Assembly (NCBI GenBank): GCA_964558415.1
Contig: CAZLDI010000004.1
Location: forward strand, 786 to 64,785
Length of the DNA stretch: 64,000 bases
From: an uncultured Dehalococcoidia bacterium
Lineage (GTDB): Bacteria > Chloroflexota > Dehalococcoidia > SM23-28-2 > RBG-16-64-32
Direction of reading: 5' to 3'
Part shown: positions 13,248-64,000 of the stretch, one piece after another
Numbering within the stretch: position 1 is the stretch's first letter
Layout of the letters: every line of letters begins with the position of its first letter
Notes under the pieces: generated by a model
What the model saw: the letters and a program-made list of their open reading frames with translations, nothing else
Database searches by the model: none
Told to the model about the DNA's origin: nothing
Made by a program: the position numbers and the translations under genes

Positions 13248-13250
13248 CGA

Positions 13251-15665: not shown

Positions 15666-15666
15666 G

Positions 15667-16875: not shown

Positions 16876-17071
16876 TAGTGGGACATATCATATTGGCGGC
16901 GCAGGGGACAAGCAATGCCACGATCAGGAAGTATTGCCTACAAAGTCGCTGACAGGTCCCGCACATCCTACCGACGCATGCCGGACTCCGGCCTCCCCCT
17001 ACCTGTGGCGCCTCGAAGGCGAAGAAGACACGGGCTGGCGGAAGGTCGCCACTCTTCGGTCATAACGCCGT

Positions 17072-33647: not shown

Positions 33648-33752
33648 TACGCGGTCCACTATCAGATAACGCTCGTTGGGTCGCTCCGGCATCTCGCCGG
33701 ACGCGTCACGGAGGCTGCTGTTGTATACTGTCGCCGTTTCAGGGAGAGCAAC

Positions 33753-35517: not shown

Positions 35518-35535
35518 GTTTCCGGGAGGAGGATA

Positions 35536-39336: not shown

Positions 39337-39467
39337 GGGCGGCTCCTTGGTCTTCGCAGATCGTATGGAATGGCCGAGCGCGGGTCAAACCTGTCAGGGG
39401 ATGAGGAAGGCACTAACGGATCGGCCTCCGCCGCGCCTCTTGCCCAGGGGCGCCGCTGTGGTCGCAC

Positions 39468-40397: not shown

Positions 40398-40495
40398 CAG
40401 CGCAACCTCCGTGCGACAACAAATATACTGCAGGCAGGCGGGTCAGACTAATCCGCTAAAGTAGCGCGAACAGGTTAAAAGAAGGAGACCGTCTC

Positions 40496-41611: not shown

Positions 41612-41653
41612 AGCTATGGAAATGGCGAGACGGGGCGGCTGAACAACTCGCCT

Positions 41654-42916: not shown

Positions 42917-43011
42917 ATCATAGTGAATGATATCCGCGCGGCCGCGTCAGGCCAAAGGGCACAGACGGCAACGTATGCCGGTGAACTTACGGCGAGAAGT
43001 CTAGTCCGGGT

Positions 43012-46126: not shown

Positions 46127-46210
46127 GTCCCTCTTCCTTCTTCCACCAGTGTTGTATATTGGTCGCGTTCAGCCCAATGCGCCAGTTCAGACGAAATCCG
46201 TGACCCGCCC

Positions 46211-46702
46211 ATGCCAACGACACTTGAACAGCTCGCGGTGGATATCGTACGACTGCTCCAGAGACGTGGATTGACGCTCGCCGTCGCGGAATCGAGCACG
46301 GGCGGGCTGTTGGGCCAGGCGATCACAGAGGTCGCCGGAGCGTCCCAGGTCTTCGCCGGTGGCGTTATCGCCTACGACAACCACCTGAAGGAACGGATCG
46401 GCGTAGCGTCCGAAACGATCGAAGCCTTCGGAGCTGTAAGCGCGGAGGTCGCCCAGGAGATGGCGCAGTCGATCCGGGAGTGGTCAGGTAGCGAGATGGG
46501 TCTCGCGGTAACCGGCATCGCCGGGCCGGGAGGTGGCACCGATGCAAAGCCCGTGGGGACAACGTACGTTGCGGTCGCGGACGCTCGCGGCGTCGCAGAC
46601 GAACGACACTTCCTCGGTGGCGGCCGCTCCGACATCAGGCGACATTCTGCTCAGGCGGCCCTTGAACTGTTGCGCGCGAGACTGGAGTCCGAGGAGCGAT
46701 AA
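46211..46702 (+). CDS. pncC: CinA C-terminal domain protein (PncC-type nicotinamide-nucleotide amidohydrolase)
   Basis: LTLAVAESSTGGLLGQAIT...GIAGPGGGT. Only the last 163 codons of the tracked ORF 45482..46702 show codon bias and homology. Confidence 0.8.
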   Translation: MPTTLEQLAVDIVRLLQRRGLTLAVAESSTGGLLGQAITEVAGASQVFAGGVIAYDNHLKERIGVASETIEAFGAVSAEVAQEMAQSIREWSGSEMGLAVTGIAGPGGGTDAKPVGTTYVAVADARGVADERHFLGGGRSDIRRHSAQAALELLRARLESEER

Positions 46703-47187
46703 TGCCGCCGACCAAGGACGAGTTCAGGGGCGCGATGGGCCGCTTCGCGACGGGCGTGACTGTCATCACGACGCGCCTCGGAAACGACCTGCACGGTATG
46801 ACGGCGAACGCTGTGACGGCGCTCTCTCTAGAGCCGCTGATGGTGCTGGTTTGCGTGGACAAAGCAGCGGACACCCACGATATCCTGCTGCAGGCCGGCG
46901 TCTTCGCGGTTAACATCCTGAGCGAGGACCAGGCCGAGATATCGGACCGCTTCGCCAAGAAAGAGTTCGATGGGGCGCACGGGCTGGACGGCCTTCCGCA
47001 CCACCTGGCAGGCAGCGGCGCGCCGATCATCGATGGGGCACTCGCCTACCTTGACTGCCGCACGATCACAGAGCACCACGGCGGCGACCACACGATCTTC
47101 ATCGGCGAGGTGATGGAAGCGTGGGAGGCGGCCGAAGGCGACCCCCTGCTCTTCTATCGCGGCAAGTACTCCCGCGTCGCCGAATAG
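46702..47187 (+). CDS. Flavin reductase family protein (NADH:flavin oxidoreductase component)
   Basis: FRGAMGRFATGVTVITT...LAYLDC. The ATG overlaps the cinA stop (TAATG). Confidence 0.8.
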   Translation: MPPTKDEFRGAMGRFATGVTVITTRLGNDLHGMTANAVTALSLEPLMVLVCVDKAADTHDILLQAGVFAVNILSEDQAEISDRFAKKEFDGAHGLDGLPHHLAGSGAPIIDGALAYLDCRTITEHHGGDHTIFIGEVMEAWEAAEGDPLLFYRGKYSRVAE

Positions 47188-48125: not shown

Positions 48126-49307
48126 CTAGTTGACGCTCTCCACCACCATCGCGATGCCCTGGCCACCGCCGATGCACAGCGTCGCGAGGCCTCGTCTTGC
48201 GTCCCGGCGCCTCATCTCGTGGAGCAGTGTCACCAGGATGCGCGTGCCGCTCGCGCCGATCGGGTGACCGAGCGCGATCGCGCCGCCGTTGACATTGACC
48301 CGTTCCCAGTCCCAGCCGAGCTCGCGCCCGACGGCGAGAGACTGAGCGGCAAACGCCTCGTTCGCTTCGATCAGGTCCATGTCTCCGATGCTGAGGCCGG
48401 ACTTCGCGAGCGCTTTCTGCGACGCCGGCACTGGCCCTATGCCCATTACCCGCGGCGGCACACCGGCGCTGGCGTAAGAGCGGATGGAGGCCATCGGCGT
48501 GATCCCCAACTCCTCGGCCTTCTTGCGGGACATCACCACCATAGCCGCCGCACCGTCGTTGATACCGGACGCGTTGCCAGCCGTCACCGAGCCGTCGGGC
48601 TTGAAGGCCGCTCGCAGCGTCGATAGTCCCTCAATGTTTGTGTCCGCGCGGAAGTGCTCGTCGCGGTCGATGATGACGTCGCCCTTGCGCTGCTTCACCG
48701 TGACCGCGACGACCTCCTCGGCGAAGCGGCCGCTATCCCACGCCGCGGCCGCCTTCTGCTGGCTCTGGACGGAGAACTCGTCCTGGTCTATCCGGGAGAC
48801 TTCGTGGTCGGCGGCGACGTTTTCCGCCGTGATGCCCATGTGACAGTCGCCGAGCGCGCACCAGAGGCCGTCCTTGATCATGTGGTCCCACATCTCTCCG
48901 TGGCCCATGCGATAGCCGTAGCGCGCCTTCGGCAGCAGGTAGGGCGAGCCGGACATGCTCTCCATTCCACCGGCGACGACTACATCAGCATCGCCGAGCA
49001 TGATCGCCTGCGCGGCGAGGGCGACTGTCTTGAGGCCGGAGCCGCAGACCTTGTTCACCGCCGTCGCGGGCACGTTGTCGGGAAGTCCCGCCGCGATTGA
49101 TGCCTGCCGCGCGGAATTCATGCCGAGGCCGGCGGAGAGGACGTTGCCCATGATCACCTCGTCTACCTGGTCCGGCATCACCTTCGCGCGGCTCAGCGCC
49201 TCTCGGATCGCGATCGCTCCCAGCTCTGTGGCCGGCGTGTCGGCGAACGCGCCGCCGAACGTCCCGATGGGGGTTCGTACTGCGCCAGCGATGACGACTT
49301 CGTTCAT
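48126..49307 (-). CDS. Acetyl-CoA C-acetyltransferase (thiolase II)
   Basis: [15 protein letters not shown], the NKVCGSG active-site Cys, and the C-terminal GHPIGASG and CIGGGQG. Confidence 0.9.
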
Positions 49308-49681
49308 ATTGGGCCTCCTTCGTCGTAGTAAAGCAGCAGGTCCGCCTCTTTTAGCTGACCGGAGACTGGATCAACGCTGAGGGCGAGCGTCTCGAGCGTG
49401 AAGACACCAAGCAGGGTCTGGTCGAGGGTTTCACTTACGAGCACCGGATTGATCTCGCTCTTACCATCGATCTCGAGGAGGGCGAATGTGCGGCGGAGCT
49501 CAACTTCGTGTGTGGCGGTCTTCACGCGGCGGGTGCCCATCTCCGGAAGTTGCAGCGAGTCGGCAAGGGGCCGAGGTATGACCGTGAACGTCGCGCCGGT
49601 ATCAACCAGGGCCTCAACTGTCGCAGTTAGGTCCCCATTGTTCGGATTGGAAATGGTGAGACTAACGCGAATATGCCCCAT
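49304..49681 (-). CDS. Retropepsin-like (clan AA) aspartic protease
   Basis: [18 protein letters not shown] motif in a 125-aa product. Its stop overlaps the thiolase start by 4 nt. Confidence 0.65.
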
Positions 49682-51187: not shown

Positions 51188-51721
51188 TCAAACCGTCTCC
51201 CACGCCCAGCCGTCGTTGCGCTGACGTAGCGCGCGGATGTGGTTGATCTCGCCGGCGTGGTAGAGGTCGTGCCCGATCAGCACGCCGATGATCCAGCGTG
51301 TCTCCCTGGTCCCGCCTTCTGGCCGGCGGCGCGGCGTCAGCAGATCGCTGTCATCAAGAGAGGCGACATGCTCTCGCAAGCGGGCATGGCCCTCGCGCAC
51401 CCAGGCCAACACATCGGCCATGGGCGGCTCACCGCCGGGGACGGGATCGCGACTCTGGAGGTCCTCCATCGTGCACGCGAGGCCGCCCGCCGGGTGGTCC
51501 CACGTCAGGCTCGCATCGCCGAACGCGAAGTTGTCGTACGTGAACTTACTCGCGCCCACGTGGCCCATGATCTTGCGGATTGAGCGCGTGGCCTCCGGGG
51601 GCGTCCAGCGCCAGATGTCCTCGTCGACGTCCCGCAGATTCGCCAGCAGTGAATGCTCGCCGTGCTATTCAAACGCCTCGTCCATCATGTAGACGAAGGC
51701 TTCAACTGCGGAACGGCTCAT
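51188..51721 (-). pseudogene. DinB_2-family gene, copy 1, interrupted by an in-frame TAG after codon 18
   Basis: The ATG at 51721 gives MSRSAVEAFVYMMDEAFE-TAG (51665..51667)-HGEHSLLANL...IRKIMGHVGASKF.... The same frame continues into tracked ORF 51188..51568. No start codon lies between the TAG and the MGHV ATG. Confidence 0.55.
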
Positions 51722-51980: not shown

Positions 51981-52455
51981 CTACGACCACTTGTCGTCGC
52001 CCTGGTGCAGGGCGCGGATCAGGTTGATCTCGCCGGCGTGATAAACGCCGTGCTCGGTCATCGAGGCGATGATCCGGCGCGTCTCTCGCAGCTCGCCCCA
52101 GTGCGTCCGCCGCGGCTCCAAGAGCTGGTCGTCGCTTAGCTTCGCCACGTGCTCACGGAAGGCGCCATGGGCCTCGCGCAGCCAGGCGGTCATCTCCTCG
52201 ATCGAGCGTTGCTGGCGCCACCGTGAATCCTCCCAAGTCAGCGCCCCATCGCCGAACGCGTGGTTCTCGAACATGAACAGCGCGCCCGCAACGTGATTGG
52301 CTATCTCCAGGATGGTGCGCCCGCCGCCGGGCGGCAGCCACGTCCAGTCCTCCGGCCCAACTGCCTCCAAGGTTGGACATTAGAGACTGCGCGTGTTCGG
52401 ACTCGAAAGCCTCGTCCAGGAGGTAGAGGATCTGCTCGACGGCGGTGCCGCTCAT
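51981..52455 (-). pseudogene. DinB_2-family gene, copy 2, with a 1-nt frameshift near codon 30
   Basis: The N-terminal frame (MSGTAVEQILYLLDEAFESEHAQSLMSNL) and the body frame (EAVGPEDWTWLPPGGGRTILEIANHV...) are offset by one nucleotide at ~52355-52365. This is the same place as the lesion in copy 1. Confidence 0.5.
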
Positions 52456-53364: not shown

Positions 53365-54111
53365 CTACTGCATGTACATCCCGCCATTGATGCTGATCTG
53401 CGCTCCGGTCACGTAGCCTCCCTCGGTGCAGAGGAAGCGGGTGATCTGCGCCACCTCCTCCGGCTTGCCGAAGCGGCCGAGCGGAATCTTCGCCAGCAGC
53501 GCCTTCTGAACGTCCTCCGTGAGGTTGGTCACCATTTCCGTCTCGATGAAGCCGGGACAGAGCGCGTTCACGGTGATGTTGAAACGGGCGAACTCCTGCG
53601 CGGCCGATTTCGAGAAGCCGATGATCCCTGCCTTCGCGGCTGAGTAGTTGGACTGCCCGAGGTTTCCCATCTGCCCGACGATCGAGGCCATGTTTACGAT
53701 GCGGCCGCCACCGCGCTCGATCATGTGCGGCAGCGCAGCGTAGGTGCAGTAGAAGACGCTATCGAGGTCCGTCGAGAGCACTTCGCGCCACTCCTCCACG
53801 GTCATGCGCCGGACAGTGCGGTCGCGATTAACGCCGGCGTTGTTGACCAGGATGTCGATCCCTCCGAAAGCCTTCACGGCCTCCTCGATCAGCCGGTTGC
53901 AGTCATCGGGGTGTGCCACGCCGGCCTGCACGCAGATCGCCTCCTGCCCCTTACCCTGTATCTCCGCCAGCAACTGGTCCGCGGCCTCCTTGTTCGTGTA
54001 GTAGTTCAGGACGACCTTGCAGCCGTGGTCCGCCAGCTCAATGGCGATGGCGCGGCCGAGACCACGCGAGCTGCCGGTGACGATGGCGACTTTGTCTTGC
54101 AGACAGGACAC
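53365..54111 (-). CDS. 3-oxoacyl-ACP reductase-like SDR (FabG family)
   Basis: TGSSRGLGRAIA, NNAG and YSAAKAG (YxxxK). Confidence 0.85.
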   Translation of the reverse strand: MSCLQDKVAIVTGSSRGLGRAIAIELADHGCKVVLNYYTNKEAADQLLAEIQGKGQEAICVQAGVAHPDDCNRLIEEAVKAFGGIDILVNNAGVNRDRTVRRMTVEEWREVLSTDLDSVFYCTYAALPHMIERGGGRIVNMASIVGQMGNLGQSNYSAAKAGIIGFSKSAAQEFARFNITVNALCPGFIETEMVTNLTEDVQKALLAKIPLGRFGKPEEVAQITRFLCTEGGYVTGAQISINGGMYMQ

Positions 54112-54198: not shown

Positions 54199-55866
54199 TC
54201 AGACCGCCGTCGGCGCGCGGTAGTCACCGAAGACCACACGCATGACGCCGCAGATCTCGCCGACAGAGGCGTACGCCTTTACCGCCTCGACGATTGAGGG
54301 CATCAGGCTCTCGGTCCCCCGGCAGGCGTCCTCGAGTCGACGGAGCGAGGCCTCGACGGCTGACTGGTCGCGCCCGGTCCTGACGCGTTTCAGCCGTTCG
54401 ATCTGAGCGCGCTCAGCCTCCGGGTTCACGCGGAAGATCATCTGCGGCTCTTCGTCCTCCTGGCGGAAGCGATTGACGCCGACGATCACCTTCTTGCCGG
54501 CGTCGATTGCCGTCTGGTAGGCGTACGAGGCCTCCTGGATCTCGCGCTGGACGAAGCCCGACTCGATCGCGGCGACTGCGCCGCCCATGTCGAGCACGCG
54601 GTCGAGGTACTCCCAGGCCCTTTGCTCCAGTTCGTCCGTCAGGGCCTCGATGTAGTACGAGCCGGCGAAGGGATCGATCGTGCTGGCGACGCCGCTCTCG
54701 TAGGCGATCACCTGCTGGGTGCGCACAGCAATGCGTTGGGCCTCTTCGGTCGGCAGGGCGAGCGCTTCATCGTAGCAGGAGAGGGCCAGCGACTGCACGC
54801 CGCCGAGAACGGTGGAGAGCGCCTGGAGCGCGGTGCGGATGATGTTCACCTCCGGCTGCTGCGCGGTGAGGGTGGCGCCGCCCGTCTGGACGTGCGTGCG
54901 GAACATCCAGGAGCGCGGGTCCTCGGCCTTGAAGCGCTCACGCATGATCTTCGCCCACATGCGGCGGAGGGCGCGGTACTTGGCGACCTCCTCGAGGAAG
55001 TTGTTCTGTGTATTGAATATCCAGGAGATGCGCGGACCGACTTCATCGACGCTTACGCCCCGTTCCACAGCGGCCTCGATGTAGGCGATCGCGTTGGCGA
55101 AGGTGAAGGCCATCTCCTGGACCGCCGTCGAGCCCGCGTCGCGGATGTGGTAGCCGCTGATGCTGATCGGGTTGAAGCGGGGCAATTCGCGGGCGCAGTA
55201 GGCCATCAGGTCGGCCGCGAGACGGAGGGACGGTTTCGGCGGGTAGATGTAAGTGCCCCTGGCGACGTACTCCTTGAGCACGTCGTTCTGCGCCGTGCCC
55301 GAAACCTGGTCACTAGGCACGCCCTGTTTCTCGCCGACGACGGCGTACATCGCGACCAGCACCGCAGCAGGGGCGTTGATGGTCATCGAAGTGCTGACCT
55401 GATCCAGCGGAATCCCCTCGAACATCGCTTCCATGTCGGCGAGGGTGTCAATAGCCACCCCCACCTTACCGACCTCGCCTTCGGACAGTGGGTCATCGGA
55501 GTCGTAGCCCAGCTGCGTGGGGAGGTCGAAGGCGACTGAAAGGCCGGGTTGGCCCTCCTTCAGCAGGAACTTGAAGCGCTGGTTCGTCTCGTCAGGAGTC
55601 CCAAAGCCGGCGTACTGACGGATGGACCAGAGGCGGCCGCGGTACATGGTCGGCTGAACGCCGCGGGTGTACGGATATTCGCCCGGGTAGCCGATGTCGC
55701 CGTCGTAGTCGCGGCCGTCGTCCCAGGGACCGTAGAGAGGCTTCGATTCAGTTGAGCTGGTGCAGAAGTCAGTGTCCGCACGCTCGCCACCGCGCTCCAC
55801 CGCCTTGCGGTAGCCAGAGTCGAGCCAGCTATCGTGGTCTTGCTTTGGACCGTTGTCCTGTGACAT
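54199..55866 (-). CDS. Methylmalonyl-CoA mutase-family catalytic (large) subunit with no fused B12-binding domain
   Basis: [26 protein letters not shown]...[16 protein letters not shown] is the MCM TIM-barrel domain. The start was moved to the ATG for MSQDNG at 55866. Confidence 0.85.
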
Positions 55867-55954
55867 CTGCGTACCCCCATTAAAGCCCAGCAACAGCAAA
55901 GTTTCAAGGCGACGCCACACCCAAGGAGTATTGTTGAGCTTACGAGGCCTCCGC

Positions 55955-56545
55955 ATGGAACCCACGATAGGCCGACGCCGAAGGATGAGGACCGGAGTCG
56001 TTGTTGCCCTGATGGTTCCACTGATGGTTGCCTTCGTCGCAGCGATACTGGCAGCGCAGGCCGGTCCTCACGACCTTGTGCTGGCGGGGGTGCCGCGGAG
56101 TGTCGTGCAGGGAGTTGAAGTCGTGTCGGACCGCGACGTGGCGGTGACGGCGGATGCAGCCCTGGCGCTGGCCCGAGAAAGGGCGGGGGACCCGAATGCC
56201 GATGTGCGCCAGGTTGTGCTGGGGCGTTACAGCGATCGGTCGTCAGCCGAGCAATGGCGAGAGATGGTGGTATGGTTCGTAAACTTTGCCGATCCCGGAA
56301 GCTTGTCGATGTCGGCTCATTGCGGATTCGAGGCGGATTACTGCAATTGCAACTGGGCCTACCACGCCGGATATGTCGTCGTAGAGATCGATGCAACAGA
56401 CGGGAGCGTGCTCGGCTTATCCTCGGGAGGCGGTTTCATAGATCCGTCGATACCTGCGACCGGCGGTTACCAGCCGACCGATAACGTGCGCGAGCGATGC
56501 CAGCGTCTCCTTGAGGAGCAGCAAGAGATCGGTAACTCTCCTTGA
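55955..56545 (+). CDS. Hypothetical membrane-anchored or secreted protein
   Basis: An N-terminal TM/signal segment [23 protein letters not shown], and a Cys-rich C-terminal part ([12 protein letters not shown]). Confidence 0.45.
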
Positions 56546-56600
56546 CCGCGCGTTCGCGCGCTCAATATAATCCGCCTCGTCACCGCCCGAAGGAGCCTTC

Positions 56601-57629
56601 ATGTACATACTGCAGAAGCTAGGCCGCTTCGTCATCCCGCGCACGGAGCTAACGTATCCCTGCCACCAACTCAAAATGCACCAGAACGCGGCTGTCGCAC
56701 CCGTTGACCAGGTGATGGCCGACTTCGAGGACGCCTGCCCGTACGAATTCAAGGGAGAGGCGAGCCGGGCGACGATGGTGGAGGCGCTGAACAGCGTGGA
56801 CTTCGGCGGGAAGGTGGTTGTGATCCGCCCCAACAATATCCACTCGAAGTACTTCCTTGGAGACATCGAAGCGATCATGCTCGGCGCGGTGGACCGCTTC
56901 CACGGGATAATCCTTCCGAAGACGGAGACGCCGGAGGACATCGTCTTCCTCTCGAGGCTACTCGACGCGATGGAGCAGCGGGCCGGCTGGACGACCCGCG
57001 TTCAGATCGAGGCGCTGATCGAGACGCCGCTGGCAGTGGTGAACGCTTACAGGATCGCGACCGCTTCGGCGCGCATGGCGGGACTGATCTTCGGGATAGC
57101 CGACTTCTCAGCCAGCCTGGGCGTGCGGGAGATGGTGGACGACCAGAACCGCAACTTCCACTACGCCAAGCAGGCGACAGTGGTGGCAGCGAAAGCGGCC
57201 GGGCTGCACGCGGTGGACAACGCTTACCTGCGCATCGTGAGGAAGGACACGCCACCGGACGAGGCGAAGATGATTGAGGCGGGACTCCGAGAAAAGAACG
57301 TGCAGTCGGCAAACCTGGGCTTCGACGGCACGTGGGTGATTCATCCGCAGCAAGCCGAGATCGCTAACGCCTGCTATACCCCCGACGACGAGACGATCGA
57401 GACCCTCAAAGGGGCCGTCGAGGCGTACCACGAGATGGGCGGCGGCTCTATCGTCAATCCGCGCACGGGAGAATTCGACGATGAGGCGACGATAAAAGGC
57501 AAATTGATGGACCTGGCGAAGGCTGCGCAAGGCGGCAAAGTAGATTGGGGCTACCTCTCGGAGATGGCCGCCAAGTCCACCGCCGTGACCGGCTACGACA
57601 TCCTCGCAAAGATGGGCCGTGTGGCGTAG
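56601..57629 (+). CDS. HpcH/HpaI aldolase / CitE family lyase, malyl-CoA (beta-methylmalyl-CoA / citramalyl-CoA) lyase-like
   Basis: AAGGAG RBS then ATG. VDQVMADFEDA...GKVVVIRPNNI...GIILPKTETPEDI aligns with Mcl-type lyases (VDVLCGNLEDA...). Confidence 0.8.
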   Translation: MYILQKLGRFVIPRTELTYPCHQLKMHQNAAVAPVDQVMADFEDACPYEFKGEASRATMVEALNSVDFGGKVVVIRPNNIHSKYFLGDIEAIMLGAVDRFHGIILPKTETPEDIVFLSRLLDAMEQRAGWTTRVQIEALIETPLAVVNAYRIATASARMAGLIFGIADFSASLGVREMVDDQNRNFHYAKQATVVAAKAAGLHAVDNAYLRIVRKDTPPDEAKMIEAGLREKNVQSANLGFDGTWVIHPQQAEIANACYTPDDETIETLKGAVEAYHEMGGGSIVNPRTGEFDDEATIKGKLMDLAKAAQGGKVDWGYLSEMAAKSTAVTGYDILAKMGRVA

Positions 57630-57632
57630 GGC

Positions 57633-58172
57633 GTGGCCGTGACCGAACTGCCGAGGCCGTTGGCGGATATCTCTGAGGCGCTGGCAGGCCAGCGCAGCCG
57701 TCTGATTGACGCGCTGCGGGGCCTGCGCGCGACGGACACAGTCCGGTCACCCGGTGCTGAGGAATGGAGCGCGGCTCAGGTTGTGGACCACCTGCTACTG
57801 GCCGAGGGGTTCACGAACGACCTAACGAAGATGATGGTCGAGAGGGCGGAAGCGTCGGGCGACGCAGCGGGCTTCCCGGCCGACCTTACCGTGTTCGATC
57901 CATTACCGCCACCCCGCGGCATGGAGGCGCCGCCGCCGATCCGGCCCCGGCAGCAGCTCCCACCGGCGGAGCTGATCGCGGCTTTGGAGGCAATGGGCGA
58001 GCGCTCCCGGTCATCGTTCGCGGCGATGGCATCGTTCGACCCGAGGCAATACAGCATGGAGCATCCACTCTTTGGCCTGCTCGACCTTGGGCAGTGGTGG
58101 ATGGTGCACCCAGTGCACTACGAGATGCACATCGCGCAGGCGCAAGAAGCGCTGAAGGCTCGGGGCGAATAA
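57633..58172 (+). CDS. DinB_2 family protein
   Basis: AAQVVDHLLLAEG...WMVHPVHYEMHIAQ shows the His-triad pattern. Confidence 0.65.
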   Translation: MAVTELPRPLADISEALAGQRSRLIDALRGLRATDTVRSPGAEEWSAAQVVDHLLLAEGFTNDLTKMMVERAEASGDAAGFPADLTVFDPLPPPRGMEAPPPIRPRQQLPPAELIAALEAMGERSRSSFAAMASFDPRQYSMEHPLFGLLDLGQWWMVHPVHYEMHIAQAQEALKARGE

Positions 58173-58175
58173 CCG

Positions 58176-59378
58176 GTGCGCTTCTACGAATTCGAAGCGA
58201 AGACCCTGCTCGCGCGGGAAGGCGTGCGCCTGCCAGCCGGTGGTACCGCGAAGACTCCTGCGGAGGCGAAGCGACTGGCGGCGGAGCTCGGCGGGCCGGT
58301 TGTCCTCAAGTCTCAGGTGCTTTCGGGCGGGCGGATGAAAGCCGGCGGCGTGAAGTTTGCGGACACGCCGGAAGAGGCGGCAGACGCCGCCGAAGCGATC
58401 CTGAAGCTGCCGATTCGGGATCAGATGCCGGTCTGCGTCTCCGTTGAAGCAAAGGCCGCAGTCGCGAAGGAATACTACCTGGGTGTGACGTTCGACGGAA
58501 TCGCCAAGCTACCGGTGATGATCTTCAGCGACATGGGTGGCATCGACATCGAGCAGGTCGCAGAGGAGCACCCGGACCACGTCGCGAAGCGCCACTTCAG
58601 CACGTTGACCCCGTTCTCCGATTTCGAGGCGAAGGAGCTCGTGGCTTCGCTGGGGATCAAGGGCAGCGAGCTCACGGCGATCACGGGGACGGTGACGCGG
58701 CTGGTGCAGGCGTTCCTGCGTTACAACCTGACACTGGCAGAGATCAACCCGCTGGGACAGCTAATGGACGGTTCGTTTGTCGCCCTCGACTGCCATCTGG
58801 ATATGGAAGAAGAGGCGCGGGACCGCCACCAGGATGTCCTCGGCGAGCTCGGCATCTCGCCCGATGACGCGAGGCAGGGACGCCCGCCGACGGAGTTCGA
58901 GATGCGGGGCGTGCAAGTGGATACGTCCGATCATCGCGGCGTCGCAGGGCGCGTCGTCGAGTTCGATGGCGATTTGGGCCTGGTGATCGGCGCAGGCGGC
59001 GGTAGCCTGACGATCTTCGACGCTGTGCAGAAGTACGGCGGACGGCCCGCCAACTACTGCGAGATAGGCGGGAACCCGAGTGTGAAGAAGGCGTGCGAGC
59101 TAACGAAGCTGATCCTGAGCAAGCCGGGCGTGAAAAAGATCGCCGTGATCATGAACGTTGTGAGCAACACGCGGGTGGATATAGTGGCCCGGGGAGTGAT
59201 CAAAGGCGTCGTCGAGTCGGGCTTCGAACCGGCCGACAAGATCGCCATCTTCCGCATCCCGGGCGCGTGGGAGCAGGATGGGTTCTCGATCCTGCGGAAG
59301 TACGGAGTGGAGTACTGCGACCGCAGCGTCTCGATGTCGGAGGCGGCGCGACGAGCTGTGGAGAAAGTGGGTGAGTAG
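58176..59378 (+). CDS. Succinyl-CoA synthetase beta-subunit-like ADP-forming acyl-CoA ligase (ATP-grasp)
   Basis: GTG start. The GPVVLKSQVLSGGRMKAGGVKF ATP-grasp domain plus a CoA-ligase domain. Confidence 0.8.
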   Translation: MRFYEFEAKTLLAREGVRLPAGGTAKTPAEAKRLAAELGGPVVLKSQVLSGGRMKAGGVKFADTPEEAADAAEAILKLPIRDQMPVCVSVEAKAAVAKEYYLGVTFDGIAKLPVMIFSDMGGIDIEQVAEEHPDHVAKRHFSTLTPFSDFEAKELVASLGIKGSELTAITGTVTRLVQAFLRYNLTLAEINPLGQLMDGSFVALDCHLDMEEEARDRHQDVLGELGISPDDARQGRPPTEFEMRGVQVDTSDHRGVAGRVVEFDGDLGLVIGAGGGSLTIFDAVQKYGGRPANYCEIGGNPSVKKACELTKLILSKPGVKKIAVIMNVVSNTRVDIVARGVIKGVVESGFEPADKIAIFRIPGAWEQDGFSILRKYGVEYCDRSVSMSEAARRAVEKVGE

Positions 59379-59699
59379 ATGCCGGCCTACGTGATCGCGC
59401 AGATGCAAGTGAACGACCCAGAGAAGTACCGCATGTACGCATCCAGGGTACCGCCGACTGTTGTCGGCTATGGCGGGCGCTTCCTCGTCGCCAGCGACAC
59501 TGCCGACGTCAAAGAAGGCGCGCAGACCTACGCGCGCACCGTGATCGGCGAGTTTCCAACAATGGAGGCGGCCCGAGCCTGGTACGAATCAGCCGATTAC
59601 CAGGCGGTTCTACCGTTGCGGCTAGCATCAACGACCGGAATTCTCTTCATCGTGGAGGGCTTCACGCTGCCTCCCGTAACCGGAGACCAAGTCGAATAA
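59379..59699 (+). CDS. DUF1330 family protein
   Basis: 106 aa reading MPAYVIAQMQVNDPEKYRMYASRVPPTVVGYGGRFL. Confidence 0.65.
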   Translation: MPAYVIAQMQVNDPEKYRMYASRVPPTVVGYGGRFLVASDTADVKEGAQTYARTVIGEFPTMEAARAWYESADYQAVLPLRLASTTGILFIVEGFTLPPVTGDQVE

Positions 59700-59714
59700 C
59701 GCCGCGCTCACGCC

Positions 59715-60635
59715 ATGTCAATTCTGATCGACGAAAACACGACCTTCATCATCCAGGGCATCACCGGCCGCGAGGCGGTGAACATGACGCGCGAGTGCCT
59801 GGACTACGGCTCCAAGGTCGTCGGCGGCGTGACGCCGGGACGCGGCGGCCGCGATGTGTACGGAGTGCCGGTCTACGACACGGTAAAGGAGGTCGTCACG
59901 AAGGAGCGCGTTGATGGCTCCGTGATCACTGTGCCGCCGGCCTTTGTCCGCGACGCCGCGTTCGAGGCGATCGAGAACGGCGTCAAGCTGCTGGTGATCG
60001 TCACGGAGCGTGTGCCGCGCATGGAGATCGCACAGCTCTTGGAATTGGCGCGGCTGCGTGGCACGCGACTCATCGGGCCCAACTGCCTTGGCATGATCAC
60101 GCCGGGTAAGTCGAAGATGGGCGGGATCGGCGGCCCCGCGGCGAACACGCGCCAGGCGTATCGTCCGGGGCACATCGGGGTTATGTCGCGCAGTGGCGGC
60201 ATGACGACGGAGATATCGAACTCACTCACCGCCGCCGGCCTCGGGCAGAGCACTGCGGTTAGCATCGGCGGCGACCCGATCATTGGCTCCACGTACGCAG
60301 AGTTGATGCCGTTGTTCGAGGCGGACCCCGAGACGCACGCTATTGTCATCTACTCCGAGCCGGGCGGTCCCATGGACGCGCAACTAGCTGAGTACGTCAA
60401 GAAGACCAACTCGCGGCTGCCGATCATCGCCTTCATGGCCGGGCGGTTTATGGACAAGATGCCCGGCATGCGCTTCGGCCACGCCGGCACGATCGTCGAG
60501 GGCAAGGCGGACACCGCAGCCGAGAAGATCCGCCGGCTAAATGACGCGGGGATCTCGGTGGCCGAGGAGATCGCGCAGATACCGGAGATGGTCAAATTGA
60601 AGCTGGCATCGACTAAGGAGACTGGAACGAAGTGA
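59715..60635 (+). CDS. Succinyl-CoA synthetase alpha-subunit-like CoA-binding subunit
   Basis: CoA-binding Rossmann domain plus the phosphohistidine-loop region GHAGTIV. Confidence 0.85.
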   Translation: MSILIDENTTFIIQGITGREAVNMTRECLDYGSKVVGGVTPGRGGRDVYGVPVYDTVKEVVTKERVDGSVITVPPAFVRDAAFEAIENGVKLLVIVTERVPRMEIAQLLELARLRGTRLIGPNCLGMITPGKSKMGGIGGPAANTRQAYRPGHIGVMSRSGGMTTEISNSLTAAGLGQSTAVSIGGDPIIGSTYAELMPLFEADPETHAIVIYSEPGGPMDAQLAEYVKKTNSRLPIIAFMAGRFMDKMPGMRFGHAGTIVEGKADTAAEKIRRLNDAGISVAEEIAQIPEMVKLKLASTKETGTK

Positions 60636-61423
60636 GCGTAACCCAGCTCCCATGGCTCCATCGCTATCGCGGCCAGCGATTCCTTAAGGAAATTAGGAAG
60701 GCTGAAGAACGATGCGCGAAGGAAACGTGGGGAACGCTGCCGAAGACCGGCGAGCGCACGCCACGCTCCCTGTCCGCCCTAGGCGACTTGCTTAGGCTGA
60801 CCTACAGCGCCTCCAGTTGCTCGTGGGGGTGTGCAGGCAGTGACCATACAGCGAACTATCTGGCCGGACGCGTGGCAACGCTAACGTCCGCGTCGCTACG
60901 ATGCTTGTCGGCAGGCTATTATGATGAGTCACTGGTGCTGGCGCGATCCGTGGGAGAGTTGGCGAACCTACTTTTGCTATTTGCACGCTATCCAGACGAA
61001 TACGTCCGCTGGAAGACCACCACACCCAAAGAGCGCCGCCAAGCTTTCTCTCCGGTTAATGTGCGGATGTCGTTGGAGCAAGCCCTAGACTTTGTTCCGG
61101 TTGACCACGTTCGTTACGAAGCGCTGAGCGAAATGGGTGTCCACGTAACTCCAGACACTATACCCCAGGCCCACAATCCGGCTCGCCGCGCCGTTCTCGG
61201 GCACATCTTCCAATTGCCGGGAGGCATCATGGCGCTAACGGAGCTCTGCATCGCCACATCAGTGGCCGCCCACTCCGTATCCAAGCTCATGAACATACCA
61301 ATGGGCGTGCGTGACGATTTCGATGCCTGTGCGCGAGAACTCATCGACGCACTTCCCAACATCGACATCTTGAGCATTCCCAAACTTCTGAGATCGCTTG
61401 CTAGGGAGCCATCGCAAGAATGA
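60632..61423 (+). CDS. Hypothetical protein in the lower-GC island
   Basis: The GTG start overlaps the sucD-like stop. 263 aa, with more A/T-ending codons than the core genes. No family was recognised. Confidence 0.5.
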   Translation: MSVTQLPWLHRYRGQRFLKEIRKAEERCAKETWGTLPKTGERTPRSLSALGDLLRLTYSASSCSWGCAGSDHTANYLAGRVATLTSASLRCLSAGYYDESLVLARSVGELANLLLLFARYPDEYVRWKTTTPKERRQAFSPVNVRMSLEQALDFVPVDHVRYEALSEMGVHVTPDTIPQAHNPARRAVLGHIFQLPGGIMALTELCIATSVAAHSVSKLMNIPMGVRDDFDACARELIDALPNIDILSIPKLLRSLAREPSQE

Positions 61424-61460
61424 AGGTCGATTCACGTTCCGAAAGAGAAGATAGGTAGCC

Positions 61461-61697
61461 GTGGCGATGTTCATCCGCGTGGACATGGAGCCATCGGTCG
61501 CGTCGGACCGTGAGCTGGCGAAGAAACTGGTGGAGGTCTGCCCCGTGAACATCTTCGCTCAGGCCGCGGACGGCTCTGCGACCATCGTCGAGGAGAACCT
61601 CGATGAATGCGTTTTATGCGATCTTTGTGTGCAAGCTGCGCCGCCGGGCGGGGTGCGAGTCCACAAGCTGTACGATGGGACAATGCTGAAGCGGTAG
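61461..61697 (+). CDS. Small ferredoxin-like protein with a single CxxCxxC...CP cluster motif
   Basis: VEVCPVNIF and ECVLCDLCVQ. Confidence 0.45.
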   Translation: MAMFIRVDMEPSVASDRELAKKLVEVCPVNIFAQAADGSATIVEENLDECVLCDLCVQAAPPGGVRVHKLYDGTMLKR

Positions 61698-61934
61698 GCC
61701 CGCCTAGTCCCCTCATCCTTCAACATCGCGACAACTCCATGTCGTGATGGCGGCCGCCGTGATACATCGCGCCGCGCTGGGTACCCTCGTGTCTGTACGC
61801 GACCTCTGACACGATCCCGCGCGGCCGGTAGTCTCCGCGGTTGTCCAGATCAAGGTCGATCTCGCGCAGGTAATCGAGGTCTGAGTCGCGGACCGGCCGT
61901 AGGGTCAGGTTTTGCCCTTCAGCAATGCTATCTC

Positions 61935-62999
61935 CTATAGGTTCATCGCTGCTAGTACTGGCCGTCGCGCGCGCACGCCCAGCGTGCCCGGCTGGATCGT
62001 CACGCCCGCGCTCCACTCGTCCATCAGGGCGATCAACTCAGCCTTGCCGATCAGCTTCAGAAGCCAGGTCTCGTGCACTAACATCGTCGCGCTTACGATG
62101 TGTCGCAGTGCCAGATGCACAGCGCGCGACTGATTCGGAGAATCGGGGCCATCTGTAAACATGGTGGCGTCTTCGTAGTTACATCGGATTCTCAGTCGAT
62201 AGAGATAGTCAAGCAGGGTCGCCGGTCTCGTCTTCACTTCGATGTCACGTTTCTCTGCGGCGGTCAATCGGGGGCGCGGAAATTTCGGCATTACCTGCGG
62301 CTGACGACCCCTTGCGACTCTTTGATCCTGCGATTCCGACCACTTCTTGCGGAGCTCAGCCTGCTTTCGATCTCTCTTATCCCTTGTGGCCTCGATTAGT
62401 CGTTCCTCTCTGGTCTTTCGCAACGCTTGGCCCGCTAGGTCCCAGCAATTTCCCCAGTCTGCCTGAGTCCAAGGATTTATGTCGGGCGCAAACACGTGGT
62501 CTCTTGGAGGATTGCAGGATCCAGCGGTACTCCATCCGAAGGACCAGGGTGGAAGAGGGACGGTTTGGTTGACCCAGAAGTCGCAGTATGAGCGTTGAGT
62601 CTTCGCGTGGCTGTCTGGTCGCAACTGTCCGCGCGCCACGAAGACGGCTTGGAAGACGTGGTAAGAGGCATAGTAAGCCTGAACTGAACCCCAATTGTTC
62701 GCCATGCCAACCAATTCATCATCCACCACCTCTCCAGTAACCTCCAATAACAATTCTGTGGTCCATCCATTCTTGAGGATCGCCGCGACTGAGCCAATCG
62801 TTCTTGCATCCAAGCGTCTTGGAGTCAGTCGACCAAACGCAGGCAGATTCGATATCGCACTCGTGATTCCACCGTACACTCGATCCCTCGGCACCATTAG
62901 AGAGCGGCGCGGACTGGCCGCGTACTCGTCGATGATTATATCCAGTGCCGCCAGATAGTTGTGATGCGCGAGAAAGGCACCCCTTGGGTCACTCGCCAC
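61935..62999 (-). CDS. Hypothetical protein in the lower-GC island
   Basis: 354 aa. It starts 9 nt downstream of the MaoC-hydratase stop. A/T-rich third positions. No family was recognised. Confidence 0.55.
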   Translation of the reverse strand: MASDPRGAFLAHHNYLAALDIIIDEYAASPRRSLMVPRDRVYGGITSAISNLPAFGRLTPRRLDARTIGSVAAILKNGWTTELLLEVTGEVVDDELVGMANNWGSVQAYYASYHVFQAVFVARGQLRPDSHAKTQRSYCDFWVNQTVPLPPWSFGWSTAGSCNPPRDHVFAPDINPWTQADWGNCWDLAGQALRKTREERLIEATRDKRDRKQAELRKKWSESQDQRVARGRQPQVMPKFPRPRLTAAEKRDIEVKTRPATLLDYLYRLRIRCNYEDATMFTDGPDSPNQSRAVHLALRHIVSATMLVHETWLLKLIGKAELIALMDEWSAGVTIQPGTLGVRARRPVLAAMNL

Positions 63000-63008
63000 C
63001 AGCGTCCG

Positions 63009-64000
63009 TTATCTCCTTTTCGGCATAAGGACCGTATAGTCCAGATCCAGAACGACGTTCGGATGGTGCGATTCTCGGCCTGATTCGGGGTCCCGTGCCT
63101 TGAGCTCGACGGGTTCCTCGTTGGGGTCCACGTTCTTGATGCCAACGAGGCGCAGGCGCAGCGCCCCGACATCAGTGCGCCCGAGATCGATGCGCTCCAA
63201 TACCTCAGTCCACGCAAAGAGCGTGTCACCGCCCACGGTCGGGTTGGCGTGCGTACCGGCGTTAAAACCGAGGATGCGTATGGCGTTCTCCAGACCGTCA
63301 TTCGAGATCGCGTGGGCGAGGGAGATGATGTGGCCGCCGTAGATTATCCGCGTGCCGAGCTTCGACTTCTTCTGGAGCATCTCGTTGAAATGGACGCGGG
63401 CGTTGTTTTGATACAGACGCGTCGCCATCTGGTGCTCCGCGGACTCTATCGTGAAGCCCTGCGGATGCACGATGCGCTCCCCTGGTTCGTAGTCTTCCCA
63501 GAACGCCTGCCCCCCCGTCGCCGCCGCGTCGAACTTCGACAGATCAAGCTCCTGGGGAATATGCAGGTTTTCGGTGGCCACGCGGGCAGGCAGCTCCGGC
63601 GTATCGTCCGCTTCACTGTTGTCACCAGGTTTCCGCTTGTTTACCATCGCCCAGCGGTAGAACTGAAGCACAGGCTCACCCCGCTGATTGAAGCCGCGCG
63701 TGTGCACCCAGACGATGCCCACGTCTGGCCGGGTGGTGTCGCGGCGGCCAATGACTTCCGTTTCCGCGCGTAACGTGTCCCCTGGGTAGACGGTGTTGAG
63801 GAAACGCATATCGGCGTAACCCAGGTTGGCCGGGGAGTTCAACGATACGTCGGGGACAGCGCGGCCGAAGACGATGTGGAAGACCAGCATATCGTGGGTC
63901 GTCTCTCGCTCGAACCCGAGCGACCGCGCGAACTCTCGCGAGCAGTGCAGCGGCCGCCGGTCGCCGGTGAGGGCGATGTAGAGCGCGAGGTCGCCTTCGG
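63009..64000 (-). CDS. MaoC-like double-hotdog (R)-specific enoyl-CoA hydratase, mesaconyl-CoA/itaconyl-CoA hydratase-like. The 5' end lies beyond the window.
   Basis: The frame remains open to the window end and encodes ALTGDRRPLHCSREFAR (the MaoC GDxNPLH-type motif) upstream of the tracked ATG. Two hotdog halves are visible. Confidence 0.8.
   Translation of the reverse strand, partial: EGDLALYIALTGDRRPLHCSREFARSLGFERETTHDMLVFHIVFGRAVPDVSLNSPANLGYADMRFLNTVYPGDTLRAETEVIGRRDTTRPDVGIVWVHTRGFNQRGEPVLQFYRWAMVNKRKPGDNSEADDTPELPARVATENLHIPQELDLSKFDAAATGGQAFWEDYEPGERIVHPQGFTIESAEHQMATRLYQNNARVHFNEMLQKKSKLGTRIIYGGHIISLAHAISNDGLENAIRILGFNAGTHANPTVGGDTLFAWTEVLERIDLGRTDVGALRLRLVGIKNVDPNEEPVELKARDPESGRESHHPNVVLDLDYTVLMPKRR

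Follow-up and report, generated by a model that had tools for sequence, protein, structure and literature searches.

The stretch of DNA considered here (the window) comprises 64,000 nucleotides of contig CAZLDI010000004.1 from an uncultured Dehalococcoidia bacterium. Its end carries a cluster of genes for acyl-CoA enzymes, and the core of this cluster consists of a lyase of the malyl-CoA lyase (Mcl) family, the beta and alpha subunits of a ligase resembling SucC and SucD, and a small ferredoxin-like protein, in this order on one strand. We suggest, tentatively, that the lyase and the ligase act together on malate or citramalate and their CoA thioesters. Genes were called from a listing of open reading frames (ORFs) together with Pfam and NCBIfam family scans over the 64-kb window. 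Every gene listed in an earlier reading made from the letters alone (the sequence-only reading) was present at or near the position given for it. The features of the cluster and its surroundings are as follows.

48126-49370 (-): thiolase, acetyl-CoA C-acetyltransferase; Pfam Thiolase_N/C, TIGR01930 499.7 bits (cut-off 240.55)
53365-54111 (-): short-chain dehydrogenase (SDR), PhaB-like; Pfam adh_short; directly downstream of the mutase
54199-55866 (-): coenzyme-B12 acyl-CoA mutase, large subunit alone; PF01642 726 bits, TIGR00641 729 bits
55955-56545 (+): orphan protein with a hydrophobic N-terminus and no family match, formerly a 'secreted hypothetical'
56542-56571 (+): sigma-70-like promoter match TTGACC-18-TATAAT, 11/12 consensus, just upstream of the lyase
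56601-57629 (+): HpcH/CitE lyase ('lyase A'); PF03328 102.5 bits (cut-off 25)
57633-58172 (+): DinB_2; PF12867 38 bits
58176-59378 (+): SucC-like ligase beta subunit; PF08442 166 bits
59379-59699 (+): DUF1330; PF07045 104 bits
59715-60635 (+): SucD-like ligase alpha subunit; CoA_binding (PF02629) and Ligase_CoA (PF00549)
60632-61423 (+): orphan ORF isl1, between SucD and the ferredoxin-like gene
61461-61697 (+): ferredoxin-like gene, 78 aa; tblastn with an 82-aa gene of a relative
61732-62019 (-): GNAT remnant; tblastn with the GNAT of locus L001
61935-62999 (-): orphan ORF isl2, between the GNAT remnant and the hydratase
63009-64000 (-), continuing past the window end: double-hotdog MC_hydratase/MaoC; PF19315 and PF01575

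From the lyase to SucD, the genes are tightly joined (1-16 nt of spacing or overlap), start and stop codons overlap, and DUF1330 starts one base past the SucC stop codon. The promoter listed above is a consensus match only, the search having given 3 matches in the region against 2.5 expected. No RNA element, including a cobalamin riboswitch, was found between 50 and 64 kb at E ≤ 0.1. The same gene order, including a low-GC island downstream of SucD, recurs in three independent metagenome assemblies (short contigs), so that the arrangement is not an assembly artefact.

One genome per species (185,579 species genomes) was scanned, which gave 269 relatives, and 80 loci were taken for comparison; they are named below by L and a number. 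Their SucC proteins are 64-86% identical to that of the window, and they come from metagenome-assembled genomes (MAGs) of Chloroflexota/Dehalococcoidia, Binatia, Myxococcota ('Deltaproteobacteria') and Solirubrobacterales. Homologs of the SucC-like protein number in the thousands, the nearest ones coming from MAGs of Dehalococcoidia and other Chloroflexota. SucD comes directly after SucC in 66 of the 67 eligible loci, and a ferredoxin-like gene follows SucD in 65 of 66, usually within 60 nt and sometimes overlapping it. A lyase of the HpcH/Mcl family lies on the same strand no more than 3.5 kb upstream of SucC in 49 of 73 loci. Among the 45 loci longer than 15 kb, the mutase is present in 22, a hydratase like that of the window in 19, a second CitE-like lyase in 13, and an acyl-CoA dehydrogenase (ACAD) resembling methylsuccinyl-CoA dehydrogenase (Mcd) in 11. 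The sequence-only reading had described the SucC- and SucD-like genes as split by DinB and DUF1330. Of these two, DUF1330 alone lies between them, whereas DinB comes earlier, after the lyase and before SucC. The two ligase genes are indeed split, and repeatedly so: in 22 of 73 loci, SucC and SucD are more than 250 nt apart.

What kind of ligase is encoded here? The beta subunit does not reach the cut-off of the SucC equivalog (246.6 bits; cut-off 370) or of the MtkA model NF010647 (182.8 bits; cut-off 604), and the alpha subunit falls slightly short of the SucD equivalog (302.2 bits; cut-off 336). In the PDB, the alpha subunit matches the alpha subunit of succinyl-CoA synthetase (SCS) with 258 bits and CcsB, of citryl-CoA synthetase (CCS), with 190 bits, and its translation contains the phosphohistidine motif GHAG (MRFGHAGTIVEG). 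The top PDB match of the beta subunit overall is Thermus SCS beta, with 201 bits. The two parts of the beta subunit differ in what they resemble. Residues 1-225, the ATP-grasp half, share 43% identity with Thermus SCS beta and 30% with CcsA; for the acid-binding domain, residues 226-372, the values are 29% with SCS beta and 37% with Hydrogenobacter thermophilus CcsA. A 16-17-residue insertion, RPPTE..DHRG.AG, is common to the beta subunit and CcsA and is not found in E. coli or Thermus SCS. The acid-binding loops read IGAGGG and VVSN-T, compared with NGAG and FGG(I/V) in SCS, and the IGGNP motif of CcsA is kept in the beta family. There are also weak Pfam Citrate_bind and Citrate_synth_N matches, and many homologs carry the JGI name 'succinyl-CoA synthetase beta subunit/citryl-CoA synthetase large subunit'. 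On these alignments, the beta subunit is an SCS/CCS hybrid, with an SCS-like ATP-grasp half and a CcsA-like acid-binding half. The CcsA-like character of the latter escaped the sequence-only reading, which labelled the protein SucC-like.

The citrate-site residues published for human ACLY, the ATP-citrate lyase (ACL) protein, are 280-281, 307-310, 343-348, and 379 (PMC11365397). In our alignment, the equivalents of ACLY Asn346 and Thr348 are retained in the beta family, while the equivalent of Arg379, which is arginine in CcsA and ACLY, is isoleucine in the window protein as well as in its homologs from L072 and L066. The 343-348 loop of ACLY reportedly binds the hydroxyl and carboxyl groups on the central carbon of citrate, and Arg379 is said to bind the pro-R carboxylate. 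A site that keeps the 343-348 contacts and lacks the equivalent of Arg379 would therefore fit malate or citramalate.

The third member of the ligase triad, the ferredoxin-like gene, was overlooked by the sequence-only reading. It was found by tblastn with the 82-aa gene downstream of SucD in L002, to which the 78-aa ORF of the window is 64% identical. The protein has the invariant residues C27 P28 ... C50 xx C53 xx C56 (CP...CxxCxxC). Its 2432 homologs have no recorded Pfam domain, and the protein gives weak matches to generic 4Fe-4S profiles. An AlphaFold model, made with an alignment of database proteins, has a pLDDT of 79.6, and among known folds it comes closest to small ferredoxins and to the [4Fe-4S] domain in subunit D of archaeal RNA polymerase. 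A search for fusions of SucD with the ferredoxin-like protein gave none, the long 'SucD' ORFs being upstream-extended calls. The near-obligatory and often translationally coupled position of the gene after SucD suggests that the protein is a third subunit of the ligase or its dedicated partner. No member of the SCS/CCS/ACL superfamily is known to possess such a third Fe-S partner.

The best PDB matches of lyase A are Mcl enzymes (5ugr, 110 bits; 4l7z, 89 bits; and 4l9y), showing that its nearest solved relatives are these rather than citrate lyase beta subunits. Residues 12-313 align with residues 13-324 of the 333 residues of 5ugr, and the C-terminal region, past the TIM barrel of the HpcH/CitE domain, matches the lid of the Mcl ortholog. 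The catalytic and Mg-binding residues of MCLC are Glu60, Asp61, Arg92, Glu157, Asp184, and, in the lid, Asp318 (PMC3832036). When lyase A is aligned with the Chloroflexus-type ortholog, all of these prove to be conserved, and its lid residue is Asp, as opposed to the Glu of malyl-CoA thioesterases. A loop of about 24 residues specific to MCLC is missing, and lyase A has an insertion and a tail of its own instead. The earlier call of an Mcl-like lyase agrees with the complete set of catalytic residues and with the top PDB matches.

In 23 other loci, the lyase that precedes SucC shares 73-80% identity with lyase A, compared with only 27-28% for the Chloroflexus-type Mcl at the same slot in the closest relatives of the window. 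The lyase of these closest relatives is an ortholog of the trifunctional malyl-/β-methylmalyl-/citramalyl-CoA lyase, with 497 bits to the Chloroflexus enzyme (4l7z) and 494 bits to that of Roseiflexus. Neither a Chloroflexus-type Mcl nor the second CitE-like lyase of the relatives was found in the window. Nevertheless, the SDR, mutase, SucC, SucD, and hydratase of the window are 76-88% identical to those of loci with the Chloroflexus-type Mcl, and its DinB and DUF1330 also group with the Mcl-carrying loci (54-65% identity). Lyase A is thus a divergent paralog of the Chloroflexus-type Mcl, belonging to a separate Mcl subgroup, and the lyase slot of the window has been refilled by it. Such a swap of paralogs at a fixed slot, between flanks from the Mcl-carrying clade, argues that the lyase and the ligase work together.

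The hydratase gene is open at the window end, so that about 30-50 N-terminal residues lie outside. PF19315 gives 63.8 bits for the truncated protein and 91 bits for the full-length ortholog in L001, a 359-aa protein to which that of the window is 81% identical. The L001 protein scores 383 bits with 4e3e, a MaoC dehydratase of Chloroflexus, and 336 bits with 8hgn, a β-methylmalyl-CoA dehydratase. The hydratase of the window is therefore an ortholog of mesaconyl-C1-CoA hydratase (Mch)/β-methylmalyl-CoA dehydratase. The sequence-only reading had called it a mesaconyl/itaconyl-CoA hydratase; the mesaconyl part fits, but the itaconyl part does not, as the itaconyl-CoA hydratase (RipB/Ich) model gives 84 bits against a cut-off of 340.

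The mutase ORF has 588 aa when read from 55965, and the ATG at 55866 is the likelier start. Its top PDB match is HcmA (4r3u, 557 bits), ahead of human methylmalonyl-CoA mutase (MCM; 481 bits). A 2-hydroxyisobutyryl-CoA mutase was nevertheless rejected, since in an alignment with 1req_A (P. shermanii numbering) the protein has IRQYAGF (Tyr89), YVARGTY (Arg207), and GLSVAFD (Ala117), where HcmA has Ile90, Gln208, and Asp117; it also has GYH, with Tyr243 and His244 in place. With Tyr, Arg, and Ala instead of Ile, Gln, and Asp, the mutase is predicted to bind a carboxylated acyl-CoA, and it appears to be of the dicarboxyl-CoA (methylmalonyl/ethylmalonyl) type. Tyr89 and Arg207 do not separate MCM from ethylmalonyl-CoA mutase (Ecm), because they are also expected in the latter. 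The protein reads SMTINA and ARGTY where canonical fused MCMs read SMTMNG and VRNTY. It also lacks RTYAGH and NICSYH, which we take to be Ecm markers, and which are found in the 653-aa Ecm-like mutase of the Binatia locus L066. No B12-binding small subunit and no MeaB were found in the 64-kb window or in the annotated flanks of the relatives; both may be encoded at another place in the genome. Fused mutases lie beside the ligase triad in Binatia and Myxococcota loci: in L066 the triad adjoins the Ecm-like protein with RTYAGH (7832-9793 (-)), and in L068 a 735-aa protein with canonical MCM motifs (12478-14685 (+)). The type of mutase linked to the triad differs between phyla.

Downstream of the mutase are the SDR gene and a metallo-beta-lactamase-fold gene. 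The SDR scores 317 bits with NF009546 (cut-off 418) and 285 bits with TIGR01829 (cut-off 302), and it resembles acetoacetyl-CoA reductase (PhaB). The SDR-mutase pair is kept in 17 loci, with 66-88% identity. A thiolase lies about 4 kb beyond the SDR in the window, and a thiolase of the same family is found upstream of the SDR-mutase pair in L006, L009, L013, and L029. The thiolase of the window is possibly part of a wider conserved neighborhood that runs from the thiolase to the SDR-mutase pair.

The neighborhoods of related loci give further information on the pathway. In loci with a lyase of the window type ('group 2'), a frequent order is mutase, Mch, Mcd-like ACAD of about 550 aa, lyase, SucC, SucD, and ferredoxin-like gene. 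The ACAD of relatives matches (2S)-methylsuccinyl-CoA dehydrogenase structures, with 390 bits to 8ciw and, over its full length, 269 bits to 6es9. In L016, the locus with the closest ortholog of lyase A, the operon adjoins a MaoC gene, an ACAD, a mutase of the same type, a PhaB-like SDR, and an MDR-family gene. This last gene, at 13116-14363 (-) in L016 and two genes downstream of the ferredoxin-like gene, is named crotonyl-CoA carboxylase/reductase (Ccr) by both NCBI and JGI and has ADH_N and ADH_zinc_N domains. MDR-family genes that cluster with it are also seen before the lyase in L059 and after Mch in L064. The Mcd-like ACAD, the Ccr of L016, the PhaB-like SDR, and the thiolase therefore point to a route of the ethylmalonyl-CoA (EMC) type, of which the Mcl/Mch part is common with the 3-hydroxypropionate (3HP) bi-cycle. 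The 'partial ethylmalonyl/3-hydroxypropionate-type route' proposed by the sequence-only reading is in line with the Mcl-like lyase, the Mch ortholog, and the Tyr89/Arg207 mutase of the window, as well as with Mcd-like and Ccr proteins in relatives.

The proposed functions of the operon are as follows. The region is seen as the variant, in one lineage, of a module conserved in uncultured Chloroflexota and other phyla, and this module would perform the lower part of a route resembling the EMC pathway or the 3HP bi-cycle. At its core, a promoter-proximal lyase of the Mcl family precedes a cassette of three genes, for ligase beta, ligase alpha, and mini-ferredoxin; in the clade of the window, DinB, DUF1330, and orphan ORFs have settled at the junctions. 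The ligase would be an ADP-forming thiokinase derived from the succinyl-/citryl-CoA synthetase stock, whose acid-binding domain still recognizes a 2-hydroxy-2-carboxy center, like citryl-CoA synthetase. With the arginine for the extra carboxymethyl arm of citrate lost, it would act on (S)-malate and/or (S)-citramalate, the free acids of the lyase substrates malyl-CoA and citramalyl-CoA. In one direction, the ligase and lyase would convert malate, ATP, and CoA to acetyl-CoA and glyoxylate. In the other direction, acetyl-CoA and glyoxylate would give malate and ATP, and the pair would stand in, with conservation of energy, for a malate synthase or a malyl-CoA thioesterase. In an EMC-type route, the step of malyl-CoA thioesterase or of succinyl-CoA:malate CoA-transferase would fall to a ligase that uses malyl-CoA. 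The lyase and Mch, with Mcd in relatives, would link glyoxylate and propionyl-CoA to β-methylmalyl-, mesaconyl-, and methylsuccinyl-CoA, and the B12 mutase would tie the module to succinyl-CoA or ethylmalonyl-CoA. The mini-ferredoxin may be a stoichiometric partner of the ligase, either as a structural or redox-sensing Fe-S subunit or as an electron carrier.

How firmly can these functions be assigned? The data support a functional link among the core genes, as a C4/C5-dicarboxyl-CoA module of EMC/3HP-bicycle type, and the operon probably handles malate-like acids in an EMC or 3HP-type pathway. That it specifically encodes an ATP-coupled malate/citramalate-CoA ligase and lyase within such a module is a tentative proposal, to which we would give somewhat less than an even chance. 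A wider proposal, which we consider doubtful, is that SucC, SucD, and mini-ferredoxin represent an unrecognized class of ADP-forming hydroxy-dicarboxylate thiokinase, an evolutionary intermediate between SCS and CCS/ACL with a dedicated Fe-S third subunit, which together with an Mcl-type lyase would make an ATP-conserving or redox-gated malate/citramalate synthase-lyase that replaces malyl-CoA thioesterase or CoA-transferases in EMC- or 3HP-bicycle-like pathways of these uncultured bacteria.

Several points weigh against the malate/citramalate assignment. The residue argument depends on an alignment with a human ACLY sequence, with numbering that agrees with PMC11365397, and on the roles reported for single ACLY residues. 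A literature search found no publication on this ligase family and no enzyme assay of any member. The window contains no Ccr, Mcd, epimerase, carboxylase, B12 small subunit, or MeaB, and its mutase looks like neither a canonical MCM nor an Ecm; it may be a split MCM or a split Ecm-like protein. Furthermore, in the loci with both Mcd and Mch, a ligase for a non-hydroxylated C5 acid such as methylsuccinate or mesaconate would give an equally linear pathway.

The last point leads to an alternative in which the ligase activates an imported, non-hydroxylated C5 acid (methylsuccinate, mesaconate, or itaconate), the CoA ester then being converted by Mcd to mesaconyl-CoA, by Mch to β-methylmalyl-CoA, and by the lyase to propionyl-CoA and glyoxylate. 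This comes near the mesaconate/itaconate idea of the sequence-only reading. It would account for the one-strand order Mch-Mcd-lyase-ligase in L030, L032, L042, L057, L060, and L072 and for the similarity of the ACAD to 8ciw and 6es9. It would also suit the Liv-type ABC transporter (Peripla_BP_6, BPD_transp_2) whose genes immediately precede the lyase in L023, L025, L028, and L031, or SucC in L049, where no lyase was called, and the second CitE-like lyase of relatives, which scores 158 bits with the RipC/Ccl model. However, the ligase retains the hydroxy/carboxy-binding loop residues of CCS and ACL, no Mcd lies beside the operon in the window or in its closest relatives, and the Ccr of L016 points to an anabolic EMC route, not to catabolism. 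The window proteins are also far under the cut-offs of the itaconate models, with 84 against 340 bits for RipB/Ich and 96 against 375 bits for RipC/Ccl. We therefore find activation of a C5 acid rather unlikely. Itaconate degradation, as put forward in the sequence-only reading, is not supported, since the hydratase is also of the Mch type and no itaconate CoA-transferase (Ict) was identified. The Liv/HAAT-type transporter is complete in these five loci, with two ATPases, two permeases, and a Peripla_BP_6 protein, accompanied by a BioY-family gene. Its position upstream of the operon may indicate that this subgroup imports an external substrate.

A second possibility is that the ligase is a divergent but genuine SCS, either as the enzyme of the tricarboxylic acid (TCA) cycle or as a copy serving the mutase branch (propionyl-CoA to succinyl-CoA to succinate and ATP), with the ferredoxin-like protein serving 2-oxoglutarate:ferredoxin oxidoreductase (OGOR). 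A ferredoxin beside sucCD would suit an OGOR-based TCA cycle, and a dicarboxyl-CoA mutase is a frequent neighbor. But while the alpha subunit is barely under the SucD cut-off (302 against 336) and Thermus SCS beta is the top PDB match of the beta subunit (201 bits), the latter is far under the SucC cut-off (246.6 against 370), has VSN-T in place of the GG(I/V) loop of the succinate site, and carries the CcsA-type insertion in its acid-binding domain. The tightest neighbor of the ligase is an Mcl-type lyase and no TCA gene, and close relatives occur in only 269 places among the 185,579 species genomes. A genuine SCS is, in our view, unlikely. The resemblance of the beta C-terminal domain to CcsA, with the common insertion, could instead mean that the ligase is a citryl-CoA synthetase and that the lyase cleaves citryl-CoA, giving a two-enzyme ATP-citrate lyase for the reductive TCA cycle or for cytosolic acetyl-CoA. 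CitE-family enzymes cleave citryl thioesters, the JGI names of homologs include citryl-CoA synthetase large subunit, and the weak Citrate_bind and Citrate_synth_N matches would agree. This is very improbable, given that the equivalent of Arg379, kept in CcsA, is isoleucine across the family, that half of the loci pair the ligase with an ortholog of the characterized Chloroflexus malyl/β-methylmalyl/citramalyl-CoA lyase, and that the neighbors are Mch, Mcd, and mutase genes rather than those of the reductive TCA cycle. Finally, the genes might belong to no dedicated pathway and merely be juxtaposed in a genome crowded with acyl-CoA enzymes, like those of such Chloroflexota in general; there are many unrelated acyl-CoA genes in the window, and orphan genes interrupt the cluster. 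We give this hardly any credence, as the lyase-ligase-ferredoxin order is kept in at least four phyla at SucC identities down to 64%, with tight junctions and overlapping start and stop codons. For the core, mere juxtaposition is contradicted; at most the outer genes and the CoA-transferases could be explained in this way.

With the malate/citramalate ligase and lyase as the preferred, if tentative, assignment, the operon can be compared with known systems. In the 3HP bi-cycle of Chloroflexus aurantiacus (mch-mcl-mct ... smtAB-meh), the chemistry of malyl-, β-methylmalyl-, citramalyl-, and mesaconyl-CoA is the same. The closest relatives of the window share its trifunctional Mcl (497 bits to 4l7z), and both the window and relatives share its Mch (383 bits to 4e3e). 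However, the transferases of the window include no Mct (TIGR04253, 44-81 bits against 725), and there is no SmtAB beside the lyase; an ATP-dependent SCS/CCS-like ligase and a mini-ferredoxin are found where malate activation is expected. The Mcl of the window has been swapped for a 28%-identical paralog, and the carriers are non-phototrophic MAGs. With the EMC gene sets of Rhodobacter sphaeroides, Methylobacterium, and Streptomyces (ccr, ecm, mcd, mch, mcl1, mcl2), the window shares Mch, an Mcl-like lyase, a dicarboxyl-CoA mutase, a PhaB-like reductase, and a thiolase, to which relatives add an Mcd-like ACAD and L016 adds Ccr. It differs from them in having no Ccr, Mcd, or epimerase, and its mutase is a split large subunit without RTYAGH. 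There is no Mcl2-type thioesterase, as all of the lyases carry the lid Asp, and an ADP-forming ligase stands where malyl-CoA would become malate.

The comparison with CcsAB of Hydrogenobacter thermophilus (6hxq) and the CCS module of ACL shows a common two-subunit architecture, with RPPTE..DHRG.AG, IGGNP, and the N-T(R) loop. In contrast, the ATP-grasp half of the window protein is closer to SCS (43% versus 30%), the Arg379 equivalent is Ile, the partner lyase has the CitE/Mcl fold and not the citrate-synthase fold, and there is an extra ferredoxin-like gene. No citrate-synthase-family gene was found in the window or in the annotated neighborhoods of relatives. In MtkAB and malyl-CoA lyase of serine-cycle methylotrophs, an SCS-like ligase is likewise paired at the gene level with a lyase of the Mcl family, and the reaction (malate + ATP + CoA = malyl-CoA) is the one proposed here. 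The ligase of the window is not orthologous to MtkAB (NF010647, 182.8 against 604), and it differs in its substrate loops, its ferredoxin-like partner, and the phyla in which it occurs. The itaconate operon (Ict/RipA, Ich/RipB, Ccl/RipC) likewise combines a MaoC-type hydratase with a CitE-type lyase acting on C5-dicarboxyl-CoA esters. However, the hydratase of the window is a double-hotdog protein of about 360 aa and an Mch ortholog, RipB and RipC are under cut-off, and no itaconate CoA-transferase was identified. Three features are new: the conserved triad of CCS-like ligase and mini-ferredoxin, the constant association of this triad with lyases of the Mcl family, and its tendency to accumulate inserted genes.

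These inserted genes vary among the loci. At least 12 of 73 loci have DUF1330 in the SucC-SucD gap, with 51-63% identity where it was detected (54-59% in the closest relatives), while other gaps hold unrelated genes, such as those for secreted proteins, a GNAT, a GIY-YIG protein, and unknowns. The junction of lyase and SucC is occupied by DinB, a RidA-like gene, or a PIN gene, and that of SucD and the ferredoxin-like gene by SnoaL or alpha/beta-hydrolase genes or by nothing. Because varied, unrelated genes occupy them, the operon junctions are recurrent landing sites for accessory genes. DinB has the same position in L006, L017, L029, and L055, with 56-65% identity. The sequence-only reading took DinB and DUF1330 for insertions of unrelated genes, but both are at the same positions in the closest relatives, and they are inherited members of the operon in the subclade of the window rather than recent arrivals. 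Four DinB_2-superfamily genes are present in the window, at 35518-36021, 51188-51664, 51981-52379, and 57633-58172, two of them adjacent. Insertion of DinB into operons looks like a habit of this genome, not peculiar to the ligase operon. In L004, the SucC-SucD spacer at 11203-11510 contains a partial duplicate of the 5' end of SucD (ILVDESTTFIIQGITGREAVNMTR) followed by a stretch translated as 'LCHSERQP', and 'CHSER(S/R)'-like translations also occur in the spacers of L045 and L013. This suggests a small repeat element that seeds insertions at the SucC-SucD junction.

The low-GC island has a GC content of 0.55-0.60 over about 60.6-63.0 kb, compared with 0.63-0.67 around it. Its lower GC was rightly noted in the sequence-only reading, but it is not empty filler, since the conserved ferredoxin-like gene and a GNAT remnant lie inside. 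An intact GNAT of about 175 aa is present between the ferredoxin-like gene and Mch in L001, L006, L008, L010, L029, and L055. By tblastn, the L001 GNAT matches the window in residues 15-108 and 181-220 only, and 61732-62019 is thus a GNAT gene remnant with an internal deletion. The orphans isl1, isl2, and 55955-56545 have no Pfam, NCBIfam, or PADLOC match and no homolog in any of the 80 related loci. A defence or phage origin of the orphan ORFs was rejected for lack of such matches. isl1 is found in the independent assemblies L084 and L085, and isl2 in L085. The orphans are real lineage-specific insertions, as the same arrangement is present in three independent assemblies. Around 55955-56545, the local GC is 0.58, and at this place relatives hold a CitE-like lyase of 273-325 aa. 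A search for repeats bounding the island gave only short matches at chance level.

The remaining acyl-CoA genes of the window are less closely connected to the operon. The sequence-only reading regarded four family III CoA-transferases as complements of the module. These four CoA_transf_3 genes, at 14454-16887 and 40460-42946, lie 12-40 kb from the cluster, amid housekeeping and sugar genes, and are separated from it by unrelated genes, including those for a galactokinase, a melibiase-family glycosidase, and redoxins. None reaches a curated equivalog cut-off, and the Mct model TIGR04253 gives 44-81 bits against 725; Mct and Smt were rejected as identities on these NCBIfam scores. No CoA-transferase homologs were seen in three Pfam-annotated neighborhoods or among the recurring gene families, although no direct search of the ±10 kb flanks was made. 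The CoA-transferases are thus unlinked paralogs, and the 'supercluster' described earlier gives way to a paralog-rich genome, as reflected by the CoA-transferases, the luciferase-like monooxygenases, an enolase-superfamily gene, and the DinB_2 genes. Further acyl-CoA genes in the window are an ACAD, an enoyl-CoA hydratase, the thiolase, and SDRs. The ACAD, at 33624-34937, is the only one in the window and is PimC-like, not Mcd-like. There are also two luciferase-like flavin monooxygenases and a flavin reductase (13251-14453, 45116-46168, and 46666-47187) and the enolase-superfamily gene (38203-39384). Together with the family III CoA-transferases, these make up the set of paralogs reported for marine Chloroflexota that degrade recalcitrant carbon. 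Beside the first pair of CoA-transferases are ORFs at 17852-18964 (-) and 17072-17797 (-) with no Pfam match. The former has weak SIR2-like PADLOC matches (best E = 6e-5, 21 bits), and the two may form a small defence or NAD-related island. Upstream of the second pair, the 194-aa product of 39858-40442 (-) weakly resembles component B of glycine/sarcosine/betaine reductase at its C-terminal end (PF07355, E = 4e-5), and this gene adjoins a 129-aa ORF without a family.

What would the proposed function mean for these organisms? The carriers of the triad are uncultured soil and groundwater bacteria, from lineages described as abundant. If the proposal is correct, uncultured Dehalococcoidia and other Chloroflexota, Binatia, Solirubrobacterales, and some Myxococcota couple malyl-/citramalyl-CoA chemistry to ATP by an undescribed thiokinase, and the genome-based reconstruction of acetate, glyoxylate, and C5-acid assimilation would change. 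The current names, 'ATP-grasp domain protein', 'acetate--CoA ligase family', and 'citryl-CoA synthetase', can give false calls of a reductive TCA cycle. The operon would also offer a natural, ATP-conserving alternative to malyl-CoA thioesterase, of interest for synthetic pathways of CO2 fixation or glyoxylate metabolism. Furthermore, the ligase would represent an extant form intermediate between SCS and the CCS module of ACL, with an obligatory mini-ferredoxin partner that has no known counterpart in the SCS/CCS/ACL superfamily.

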